Numbered from the stretch's first letter, positions 44,771 through 47,914 are shown. The stretch: 64,000 bases of DNA from Nitrospirota bacterium (GCA_963699545.1 CAVOUE010000006.1:192001-256000); one strand, 5' to 3'. Notes: a model not told the origin generated them from the sequence alone. Made by a program: numbers and translations.

Positions 44771-44900
44771 GTCGTTTGTCCTCCTCTTAAATGAAGAGGA
44801 GGTGCAGGAGGGGCTAACTTTTCGCTGGAATTCCATAACTCCCCCTTACCCCCTCTTAGCTTAAGAGGGGGTGCCCCAAATAGTCGGGGCGGGGGCGTTA
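44771..44900. repeat. intergenic palindromic repeats (CCTCTTA...AAGAGG)
   Basis: CCTCCTCTTAAATGAAGAGGAGG and CCCCTCTTAGCTTAAGAGGGG. Confidence 0.55.
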
Positions 44901-44950
44901 CTCCTTCCCGGCTGTTTGACTCGTCCCCTGTCAAGTGATACCCTTTAACT

Positions 44951-45367
44951 GTGAAGACCTTCGAGGTGATCGACATCTCAGGAGACGCCGGCATAAGGGC
45001 ATATGGAGGGACACTCCAGGACCTCTTCGTCAATGCCGCCATGGGGATGTACAGCCTCATCACCGACCCTTCAGCCATCAGGGAAGAAAGGCATATGGCG
45101 CTGGATATCGAGAGCCACTCCCTTGAGGGACTCCTCGTGTCGTGGCTCAACGAGCTGATATTCCATTTCGATACCTATGGATTTTTAGGGAAGACCATAC
45201 GCATAGCAACCCTCCGTAACAATACGATCTCTGCCCGCGTGTCGGGAGAAGAGTTCGACCCGGGAAGGCACGAGAGAAGGTTGCTCGTCAAGGCGGCGAC
45301 CTATCATCAGCTCAGCATAGAGAAAAAAGAAGGACAATGGGTGGCGGATATTATCTTCGATATTTAA
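44951..45367 (+). CDS. archease
   Basis: DISGDAGIRAYG, LLVSWLNEL, VKAATYH, C-terminal FDI. Confidence 0.92.
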   Translation: MKTFEVIDISGDAGIRAYGGTLQDLFVNAAMGMYSLITDPSAIREERHMALDIESHSLEGLLVSWLNELIFHFDTYGFLGKTIRIATLRNNTISARVSGEEFDPGRHERRLLVKAATYHQLSIEKKEGQWVADIIFDI

Positions 45368-45409
45368 GTTGACACTCTTTGTGGCCTTGCCGCAGGGTTA
45401 CCCTATTGG

Positions 45410-45473
45410 GTCATTCCCGCAAAAGCGGGAATCCAGAAAAAGGCACTGGATTCCGGGTCAAGCCCGGAATGAC
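45410..45473. repeat. GTCATTCC palindromic doublet (REP/MITE-like)
   Basis: GTCATTCCCGCAAAAGCGGGAATCCAG-aaaaaggca-CTGGATTCCGGGTCAAGCCCGGAATGAC. Confidence 0.9.
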
Positions 45474-45537
45474 AAATAATAGATTTGGATACGCTGCGGT
45501 CTTGCCGCAGGGTATTTCATAGGAAGGAGGTGGTCTG

Positions 45538-46982
45538 ATGGGCACTGAGAAGCTCAGGAGAATCGACAGCACAAAGATAGAGATCCCCGCTGATTACAAG
45601 CCCGGCATGCGGGTGAAAGGAGTCATCTACGTCGATGATGTCCTCGAAAAAAAACTTGAGAGCTCGTGCATCGAGCAGGTAGCGAATGTCGCGACACTTC
45701 CCGGCATTGTGAAGGCATCCATGGCAATGCCCGACATCCACACCGGATACGGTTTCTCCATTGGGGGCGTTGCTGCCTTTGACCTGGAGGAGGGGATAAT
45801 CTCCCCCGGAGGTGTGGGTTACGACATAAACTGAGGGGTCCGCCTCCTCAGGAGCAACCTCAAAAGAGAAGAGGTGGCTCCGGGGATGAAGGGCCTCGTG
45901 GGGGTCCTGTACAATGAAATACCCTCCGGTGTGGGGTCAAAGGGGAATATCCGCCTCAGCGCGGAGGAAGAAAGGAGGCTCCTTCTTAAAGGCGCACGGT
46001 GGGCCGTGGAGAACGGCTACGGAGACGCCCTGGACCTCCAGAATACGGAGTCAGGCGGCTGCATAGAGGGCGCCGACCCTGACCTCATAAGCCGGAAGGC
46101 TTACGAAAGAGGACGGGCGCAGCAGGGGACCCTCGGATCAGGCAACCATTTCCTCGAAGTCCAGTATGTGGATGAGATCTACGACGGGAAGGCTGCCGAT
46201 GCCCTGGGCATCTTCATGGATCAGGTGACGGTCATGATACATACGGGGTCCCGTGGGTTCGGACATCAGGTCTGCACGGATTTTATCGAGGTGATGGAAA
46301 GGGCAGCGGCCAAATACCGCATCGAACTGCCTGATAAGGAACTTGCGTGTGCACCCTTCGAAAGTCCGGAGGCAAAGGACTACCTTGCGGCAATGAGGGC
46401 GGCAGCCAATTACGCATGGGCTAACAGGCAGTGCATCACGCACTGGGCCCGGGAAACATTCCTTAAGTTCTTATCCACGACACCCCGGGAGCTTGGGATG
46501 AGCCTCATTTACGATGTGGCGCACAACATCGCTAAGGTCGAAGAACACGTGATGAACGGAAGAACGAGAAAACTGATCGTGCACAGGAAGGGCGCCACAC
46601 GGGCCTTTCCCCCGGGCATCCCGAACTGCCGGAAGCCTACAGGAACACAGGACAGCCAGTGCTGATACCGGGAGATATGGGCAGGGCATCCTTTGTCCTC
46701 GTCGGGACGGAAAAGGCTATGCAGGAGACCTTCGGCTCAACATGCCACGGCGCCGGTAGGGTGATGTCCAGGCACCAGGCCATACGCCAGGCAAAAGGCA
46801 GGGCCATATGGCGTGAGCTCGAGGACAGGGGCATATTCGTTCAATCAGCGGGCAGGGAGACCCTGGCGGAGGAGATGTCCGAGGCATATAAGGACATATC
46901 CAATGTGGTGGACGTTGTTCACAATGCAGGGATATCGAAAAAAGTGGCGCGGCTGAGACCGATGGGGGTCATAAAAGGATAG
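45538..46982 (+). CDS. rtcB: RtcB RNA ligase (archaeal type); in-frame TGA at the catalytic Cys; frameshift near 46617
   Basis: [62 protein letters not shown]. Confidence 0.93.
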
Positions 46983-47013
46983 CGGACGACAGGGTGCGAA
47001 AAAGATCTGGCAG

Positions 47014-47914
47014 CTACTGCTGGAAGCCGATGGTCACTTCGTAACTATAAAGAACCTCTCCGCCCTGGCCGTCACTGAGCTGGACGCTGACAGGATGCCT
47101 GCCCGCATCCTTCTCCGCGACACGCCACGTTATCAAGCCGGTGGATTCTTCTATTGTCAGCCCGGCAGGGGCTTTCCTGAGCTTGAAGGTGACGGGGTCG
47201 CCGTCAGGGTCAGAGGCCTTGACCCTGAAAGAATACACGTTATTCTCAAACCTCTCATCGCCTCCCAGAGGCTTTGGCGCAGCGTTATAGATCTGAGTGT
47301 TTATCGTGATGGCCTGGCCGTCCGCTTCCCCGTCAAAAGGAGTGATCCTGACGGCTATCCTGTCACCCCGTTTAAAGGGTCCCTCAAGGCTGTTGTCTGT
47401 CCCTGAAGCATCTCCGTTCCTGAACCACTCATACTTGAAGGTCACCGTGTCCCCGTCCCTGTCGTCCCCTGCAAGATCCACGCGGAGATTATCAATTGCC
47501 CTGGGGAACCTCGGGATGATTTCGGCCCTTGCAACGGTGGGAAGAGCGTTCTTAACGACAACCTTGCCGGATTCGACCGCTTTTCCGTTCAGCGTTGCCT
47601 TCGCCTGGACAACATCCCCTTTCCTGAGCTCCTGCGAACTGAACTGGCTGCCCACCGCGCTGACAACGGGCCTGCCGTTCACAAACCACTGGATGCCGGA
47701 AACCTTGCCTGCGGGCGGTATTGAAAATATGCTCTCCCTTGTGGCATCGGCCGGAACGATCTGCAATGGCTGAAGCTGAGAAGCCACAGGAAGCGCAGAT
47801 CCCGTCCCCTGCGGCTTCTCGGATGAACACCCTCCGGACACGATGAACAGGCACGACAGAACGAGAACTGAACAAGCAGCACGTTCTTCCCGCCCTGTCT
47901 GCCAAGGCCGTCAT
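47014..47914 (-). CDS. Ig-like (He_PIG/cadherin) domain lipoprotein, pilus-associated (frameshift near 47865)
   Basis: SGGC lipobox, ASDPDGDPVTF, GLTIEESTGLITW. Confidence 0.7.

Follow-up and report, generated by a model that had tools for sequence, protein, structure and literature searches.

The rtcB gene in a 64,000-nucleotide (nt) stretch of a Nitrospirota bacterium genome (GCA_963699545.1, CAVOUE010000006.1:192001-256000; this whole stretch is called the window below) very probably encodes a selenocysteine (Sec) form of the RNA ligase RtcB, with an in-frame UGA decoded as Sec through an RNA hairpin in the codons that follow. RtcB is a GTP- and Mn-dependent ligase for RNA 3'-phosphate and 5'-OH ends. 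In the window, ATG 45538 opens a plus-strand reading frame whose codon 99 is TGA (45832-45834, within GAC ATA AAC TGA GGG GTC CGC CTC CTC). A first-pass annotation had proposed a Sec (or UGA-recoded) RtcB here, pointing to a TGA at the catalytic cysteine in the context DIN*GVRLL and to an archease gene directly upstream. The codon lies exactly where it had been placed, the identities of both genes and the alignment with the metal-bridging Cys are borne out below, and the proposal as a whole is supported by the pairing of Sec and Cys codons at one site, by recurrence of the TGA, by the hairpin and by the decoding genes. In the mechanism we favour, tRNA-Sec and SelB would decode UGA 45832-45834 as Sec, directed by a hairpin that lies inside the coding sequence and starts 10 nt past the UGA, and selenium would thereby be placed where other RtcBs have the Cys sulfur that bridges two catalytic metal ions. 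We infer both the insertion of Sec and its purpose.

The gene is readily recognized as rtcB. A ribosome-binding site, AAGGAGG (45524-45530, found by direct reading of the sequence), is followed 7 nt further on by the ATG; frame reading, Pfam and alignment agree on codons 1-98 (45538-45831), which end at the motif GGVGYDIN, and codons 100-354 (45835-46598) continue in the original frame through the motifs GNHF, HTGSRG and DVAHN. The C-terminal part (46607-46982, HPELPEAY...CHGAGR...VIKG, stop TAG 46980-46982) lies in a shifted frame, to which we return. Family PF01139 matches residues 1-356 with 419.2 bits (E 3e-125, cut-off 27 bits) and the C-terminal part with 161.4 bits (E 5.5e-47), the latter covering profile positions 305-426 of 426. 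Pyrococcus horikoshii RtcB (PDB 1uc2, 4dwq and others), which belongs to the same family and has the near-identical local motif GGIGYDIN-C-GVRLIRTN, aligns with E 1e-133 over residues 6-356, placing the TGA, codon 99 here, opposite its Cys98; the C-terminal part aligns to its residues 351-481 (E 9.8e-44). The GNHF, HTGSRG and DVAHN motifs match the regions of His203, His234 and His329, the individual numbers inside these motifs and inside CHGAGR being those we take to apply. In the alignment, the Asp of the local motif and all three of these motifs are identical to P. horikoshii RtcB, and CHGAGR is found in the C-terminal frame. The metal ligands of the P. horikoshii enzyme are Asp95, Cys98, His203, His234 and His329, with His404 as the nucleophile; Cys98 bridges Mn1 and Mn2, and the C98A substitution abolishes every step of the reaction (PMC9745838, in excerpt). 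Where that enzyme has its bridging Cys, the window gene has a UGA, presumptively a Sec codon, and an RNA hairpin in the codons that follow. Since Cys is absent there, the ligand set would lack its residue at position 98 unless Sec is inserted at the UGA. The genome search returned this single RtcB match, with no Cys copy to substitute for it.

Recurrence of TGA at this exact codon is, as judged from the sequences compared, far beyond chance. RtcB was matched in 40 of 41 related genomes, and 26 of these 40 have one TGA within the match (hand count of in-frame stops). When the codon itself was checked in 30 loci of these relatives, within GYDIN-x-GVRLL, it was TGA in 20 and TGC or TGT in 10, so that the relatives are not uniformly Cys, an outcome the first-pass annotation had named as one that would speak against it. 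A phylum-wide sample of 401 genomes gave 333 with an RtcB match; among the best-scoring matches listed, beyond which lie 195 further ones, 43 contain one TGA (hand count), all with 66% or more identity to the query and from the same family, order or class, and no TGA was seen in listed RtcB matches from other classes. A degenerate DNA motif for G-(Y/F)-D-I-N-TGA-G-V-R, scanned over a one-genome-per-species collection, found at least 119 stretches. Among the 119 matches listed, the TGA is in frame in all; in 89 a stop follows after 378-383 further codons, in 27 the locus ends before any stop is reached, and 3 (L079, L106 and L108) have an earlier stop. By National Center for Biotechnology Information (NCBI) names, the same listed matches divide into Thermodesulfobacteriota (30), Nitrospirota (27), Acidobacteriota (24), Myxococcota (10), Pseudomonadota (5), Binatota (2) and one each of Eiseniibacteriota, Gemmatimonadota and Planctomycetota, with 18 loci for which no phylum is named, 15 of them labelled 'Deltaproteobacteria'. 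On these names, which may be imprecise for metagenome-assembled genomes (MAGs), TGA-RtcB appears in at least eight named phyla.

A search of public sequencing runs listed two soil runs (5% of sampled words) and neither an RNA run nor the reads behind this assembly; the two runs supplied contigs of relatives about 89% identical to the window. Contigs from both of these independent runs cover the TGA codon, and among the differences listed (90 further ones lie beyond them) none falls within 45822-45863. We take the TGA at 45832-45834 to be real: a sequencing error is ruled out by its presence in 20 loci of relatives and in at least 119 further loci from independent assemblies, because one codon cannot err alike across all of them.

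Several individual loci deserve mention beside this pattern. One related genome (G036) has two RtcB genes, a Cys form on contig C45 and a TGA form on contig C80, so the Sec and Cys forms can coexist. In a Gemmatimonadales-labelled MAG (G418), four TGAs in RtcB (L079:2766-4205) were considered as codon reassignment; three of the four lie out of frame between two frameshifts, and therefore only the TGA at the Cys site counts. RtcB frames of 964-971 residues occur in four relatives (G027, G107, G152 and G187), with the match interrupted near residue 97-99. An intein at this very Cys could account for such long frames, and the positions of intein and Sec seem to be the same; NCBIfam NF038162 is a model of intein-containing RtcB.

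The genome encodes most of what Sec decoding would require. A tRNA-Sec with the anticodon tca, selA (607 bits), selB (302 bits, split by a frameshift) and an FdhA gene with one TGA (1546 bits) were all found, so that the lack of Sec machinery and of any UCA tRNA, which the first-pass annotation had held would refute its proposal, is not what the genome shows. Among 41 related genomes, selA exceeds the cut-off in 38, and the remaining three are 63-83% complete; it is found as well in nine of ten genomes of other phyla that carry TGA-RtcB. Of 20 relatives, 19 have a Sec-type selD, itself with a TGA; the two genomes that share the genus of this one are among the 19.

The hairpin behind the UGA was defined by both fold energy and covariation. 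The 69 nt from the UGA onwards fold with -36.2 kcal/mol (z -4.0), an energy that none of 200 shuffles equalled. In the consensus fold from an alignment of 20 Sec forms, an interrupted hairpin of 15 pairs (45845-45886, plus strand; our candidate Sec insertion sequence (SECIS) of 'type A') consists of a 5' arm at 45845-45861, a 9-nt purine loop at 45862-45870 and a 3' arm at 45871-45886; the apical loop is about 30 nt from the UGA. Across the 20 Sec forms, 93.8% of cells can pair, as compared with 41-51.5% when the partners are slid by 1-3 columns. Changes on both sides occur in four pairs and in seven cells; 4 of 500 shuffles gave as many such pairs, and none of 500 as many such cells. An outer stem may enclose the hairpin (45832-45898), formed either by UGAGG 45832-45836 with CCUCG 45894-45898 or by GGGGUCC 45835-45841 with 45891-45897; its columns are nearly invariant, with four of five pairs never varying and the fifth varying on one side only, and therefore covariation neither supports nor refutes it. 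A smaller hairpin had been put forward in the first-pass annotation (TGAGG/CCTCA below, CTCC-TCA-GGAG above). It can form, but the larger fold at 45845-45886 is the one backed by energy and covariation, and the CCTCA arm of the small hairpin is used by the inner stem ACCUC/GAGGU, where compensatory changes occur. We therefore rejected it as the signal and regard it as another local pairing with no independent support.

A second hairpin design is found in other phyla. Among the matches listed, the 119 loci were sorted by the peptide after the codon into 25 of the window type and 94 of another type, and 88 other-type sequences were left once duplicates and three more that we judged to be of the window type had been removed. 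Every one of the 88 folds into a hairpin with 5 bp or more, its loop beginning 24-26 nt away from the first base of the UGA, and 77 of the 88 loops contain GU (GGUC in 27, GGUU in 12 and GGUCU in 10). A typical case is UGCGCUC-AGGUCU-GAGCCGCA; others are GAAGACC-AGUUU-GGUCUUC and GAGAACC-GGUCU-GGUUCUC. As short folds of 28 nt these have a mean z of only -1.4, and their weight, in our reading of the alignments, is in the conserved position across quite different stem sequences. In this genome, FdhA and a second fdh-like gene carry comparable hairpins after their UGA, GGCC-AGUCU-GGCC and GGUGGCC-GGUCU-GGCCAC, and a selD locus of the relatives (L162) also has a proper hairpin. The fdh hairpins, which we take to resemble that of E. 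coli fdhF, lie within the coding sequence shortly after the UGA, and the GGUC, GGUU and GGUCU loops of RtcB in other phyla sit at the same distance. By contrast, the hairpin of the window's clade is longer and interrupted, with a 9-nt purine-rich loop that lacks GU and lies about 30 nt from the UGA. The RtcB genes of other phyla thus seem to carry a textbook-looking SECIS, and the window's clade an atypical, longer one with a purine loop without GU.

Sec and Cys forms appear to have replaced one another repeatedly. In a FastTree phylogeny of 142 sequences, calculated with the Sec/Cys column masked, with seven short sequences dropped and with no root or direction assigned, the window falls within a clade of 57 Nitrospirota-type sequences (support 100) comprising 47 Sec and 10 Cys forms, a sampling biased by the fact that most Sec sequences came from the TGA motif and all Cys sequences from the search of relatives. 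The Cys forms are scattered in this clade, with eight changes by parsimony, of which at least three are forced by well-supported branches.

A number of observations weigh against Sec decoding of this gene. Bacterial SECIS models have an apical loop with a conserved G or GU that is used by SelB; the loop here, AAAAGAGAA, has a G and no GU, unlike the genome's own fdh hairpins, and an Rfam scan of 44800-47100 with E up to 1 gave two chance-level matches and no SECIS family. Because of the loop and the Rfam result, a SelB-binding role for 45845-45886 is something we infer, and the atypical hairpin is the weakest link for this particular gene. The difference in mean fold energy of the 69 nt between 20 Sec forms (-32.8 kcal/mol, standard deviation 3.6) and 10 Cys forms (-14.4 kcal/mol, standard deviation 8.8) is in part confounded, several of the Cys genomes being lower in G+C, and the folds of two Cys forms, L017 (-33.1 kcal/mol) and L039 (-28.3 kcal/mol), are as good as those of Sec forms. 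Both of these TGT forms keep the full hairpin (L017:1792-1863 and L039:1783-1854), as if Sec had recently given way to Cys and the SECIS had been left behind. selD was searched for and not found in this genome, whose assembly is 86.9% complete (13 contigs, 3.04 Mb); the gap is probably due to the incomplete assembly. The Gemmatimonadales-labelled MAG with TGA-RtcB has neither selA nor selB above the cut-off, and frameshifts disrupt its RtcB gene. Finally, as assembled, the window's own rtcB is frameshifted at 46599-46606 and so formally broken in this record.

That last point corrects the first-pass annotation, which had the remainder of RtcB following in an unshifted frame. The original frame holds only to about 46598, and the last approximately 125 codons are in another frame, owing to a one-base deletion in the C5G3 run at 46599-46606 (plus strand), where TTT CCCCC GGG CAT (46596-46609) is one base short. 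All five relatives that could be aligned read CCN CCN GGN at this site (seven were tried, two without a match), and contigs from both public runs (X1 and X2) also have one extra base, placed by the aligner at 46616 and 46622. If this lesion were genuine, the gene would be a decaying pseudogene, its UGA form functional in relatives and unexpressed here, and the missing selD would fit such decay. We consider this improbable. The lesion is single and sits in a homopolymer run, neither frame is otherwise disturbed, the protein is 88% identical over 335 columns to the closest sequence (L014), and the gene is the sole RtcB match in the genome. Moreover, the same assembly breaks other genes in a way that points to consensus indel errors: the essential tuf changes frame at least twice (C12:~46281-47161, minus strand), selB lies in two frames (C3:318143-319991, plus), a second fdh gene is spread over several frames (C3:431250-434420, minus) and a tRNA was predicted with an anticodon of four bases (C9:215527-215602, minus). 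With so many indel-type breaks, any frameshift in this genome is suspect, and the one in rtcB is most likely an assembly error and not biology.

Decoding of the UGA without selenium is a still less likely account. The codon might be read through by a near-cognate tRNA-Cys or tRNA-Trp, or by Cys carried on tRNA-Sec, with the hairpin acting as a readthrough stimulator; the absence from the window hairpin of the GU apical loop seen in the fdh SECIS and the absence of selD from the assembly would both suit such a scheme. It sits poorly with the tRNA-Sec, selA, selB and UGA-containing FdhA of this genome, with the Sec-type SelD of its relatives, with selA in nearly all other-phylum genomes that have TGA-RtcB, and with the GGUC-type loops that make the hairpins of other phyla resemble those of fdh. 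A UGA in place of an essential Cys is, in addition, the usual signature of a selenoprotein (PMC12013277, in excerpt). Least credible of all is that the UGA is a true stop dividing RtcB into two polypeptides of 98 and about 380 residues, or that the TGA is an error for TGC or TGT. Gene callers do treat it as a stop, and the public protein of one such gene, from Candidatus Magnetobacterium casense (one protein checked), is a 361-residue C-terminal fragment amounting to 76% of the gene. A stop would however delete the essential metal-bridging residue, the conserved GVRLL follows directly in frame, and translation could restart in frame no earlier than GTG 45874, 14 codons past the TGA, which led us to reject a split gene with internal restart; an error is countered by the independent assemblies described above. 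Decoding as Sec remains the reading that we prefer.

The chemistry of the site suggests why selenium might be used there. Cys98 of P. horikoshii RtcB has been observed in a crystal oxidized to the sulfonic acid, which prevents metal binding (PMC9745838), and the active-site Cys of human RTCB is prone to metal-induced oxidative inactivation, against which PYROXD1 guards it (PMC12263435, in excerpt). For [NiFeSe] hydrogenase and FdhA, a metal-ligating Sec has been argued to protect against irreversible over-oxidation (PMC13188914, in the part bearing on these enzymes). Because Cys98 is oxidation-prone and this argument exists for other metal-ligating Sec residues, Sec may make the RtcB metal site more robust or more readily repaired; our preferred reason is that a selenolate ligand would resist or reverse the oxidative damage that irreversibly kills the Cys form. 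Alternatively, selenium could change the affinity for metal or the choice of metal. The human system shares the same weakness, oxidation of the active-site Cys, and meets it differently, with a separate flavoprotein, PYROXD1, guarding a Cys enzyme, whereas in the window RtcB the residue itself would have been changed to Sec. The Mo/W enzyme FdhA, of which this genome has an example, and the [NiFeSe] hydrogenases offer a parallel, with Sec where a Cys would otherwise ligate the active-site metal. Those are redox enzymes, however, whereas RtcB, at a binuclear Mn site, transfers a nucleotidyl group and forms a phosphodiester, a reaction without net redox change.

Sec has previously been put at this residue by engineering. 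P. horikoshii RtcB U98 has Sec at the same residue in nearly the same sequence context, but was made by means of a UAG codon and an EF-Tu-dependent tRNA, in contrast to the UGA and downstream hairpin of the natural forms; the engineered protein spontaneously cleaved a nearby peptide bond (PMC4150793, in excerpt). By analogy, the natural forms, which nearly share its local sequence, call for caution over spontaneous cleavage.

These findings describe what appears to be a genuine, widespread and apparently unreported selenoprotein family. Neither RtcB nor any RNA ligase is in Table 1 of a May 2026 inventory of 119 prokaryotic selenoprotein families, GenBank-annotated ones included, and the words ligase, RtcB and splicing do not occur in its main text (PMC13188914). 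Term searches of the main texts of the deep-Sep paper and of a 2022 review found no Sec-RtcB, and no natural Sec-RtcB was found in the full-text literature, a search outside which lie supplementary survey tables and subscription journals that could list it. No selenoprotein model for RtcB exists in NCBIfam release 20, where the window gene is matched best by the intein-containing RtcB model, below its cut-off. We lean, with some reserve, towards a broader view: that Sec-RtcB is a large uncatalogued family of at least eight bacterial phyla and the first selenoenzyme of RNA repair or ligation, in which selenium would bridge a binuclear Mn centre in non-redox catalysis; that its genes use two unrelated SECIS designs, that of the window's clade departing from the GU-loop model; and that Sec and Cys have been exchanged several times within Thermodesulfovibrionia-like Nitrospirota.

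If this view is right, the off-model hairpin of the window's clade may explain why SECIS-based searches missed Sec-RtcB, and including it could improve SECIS models. Most known prokaryotic selenoproteins are thiol-oxidoreductase-like or have redox motifs (PMC13188914); Sec at the metal-bridging position of an RNA ligase would extend the use of selenium to RNA repair and tRNA processing. The repeated switches would supply natural pairs of enzymes, Sec forms with Cys siblings in close genomes, in which the benefit of selenium at an easily oxidized metal site could be directly tested, setting an answer to Cys oxidation against a metal preference. TGA-RtcB genes are called as fragments or pseudogenes, going by the one public protein checked, and both the presence of RtcB and the size of the selenoproteome would therefore be underestimated in Nitrospirota, Thermodesulfobacteriota, Acidobacteriota and other phyla.

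The archease gene upstream of rtcB (44951-45367, plus strand; 138 codons, GTG start) matches PF01951 (E 7.1e-40) and NCBIfam NF001617 (E 1.4e-36). Archease activates RtcB (PMC10944509, in excerpt), and the window gene adjoins its archease gene as in this known pair. Further upstream of archease are genes for GlnE and a fumarate hydratase subunit; downstream, on the opposite strand, is a gene for an Ig-domain protein. The spacer between archease and rtcB (45368-45537) folds with -67.9 kcal/mol (z -5.7) and contains a repeated element of about 66 nt (45410-45476, no strand assigned) with terminal inverted repeats, GTCATTCC...GGAATGAC, recognized from blastn copies, read depth and fold. Seven more copies or fragments of it were found in this genome by blastn, and its depth is 112-179 in the two soil metagenome runs versus about 8 over the gene. 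This element resembles a small repeat of the repetitive extragenic palindrome or miniature inverted-repeat transposable element (REP/MITE) kind, and is not part of the recoding signal. Elsewhere in the window, tRNA-Ile(gat) and tRNA-Ala(tgc) lie close together at 9693-9970, the usual pair in the spacer of an rRNA operon.

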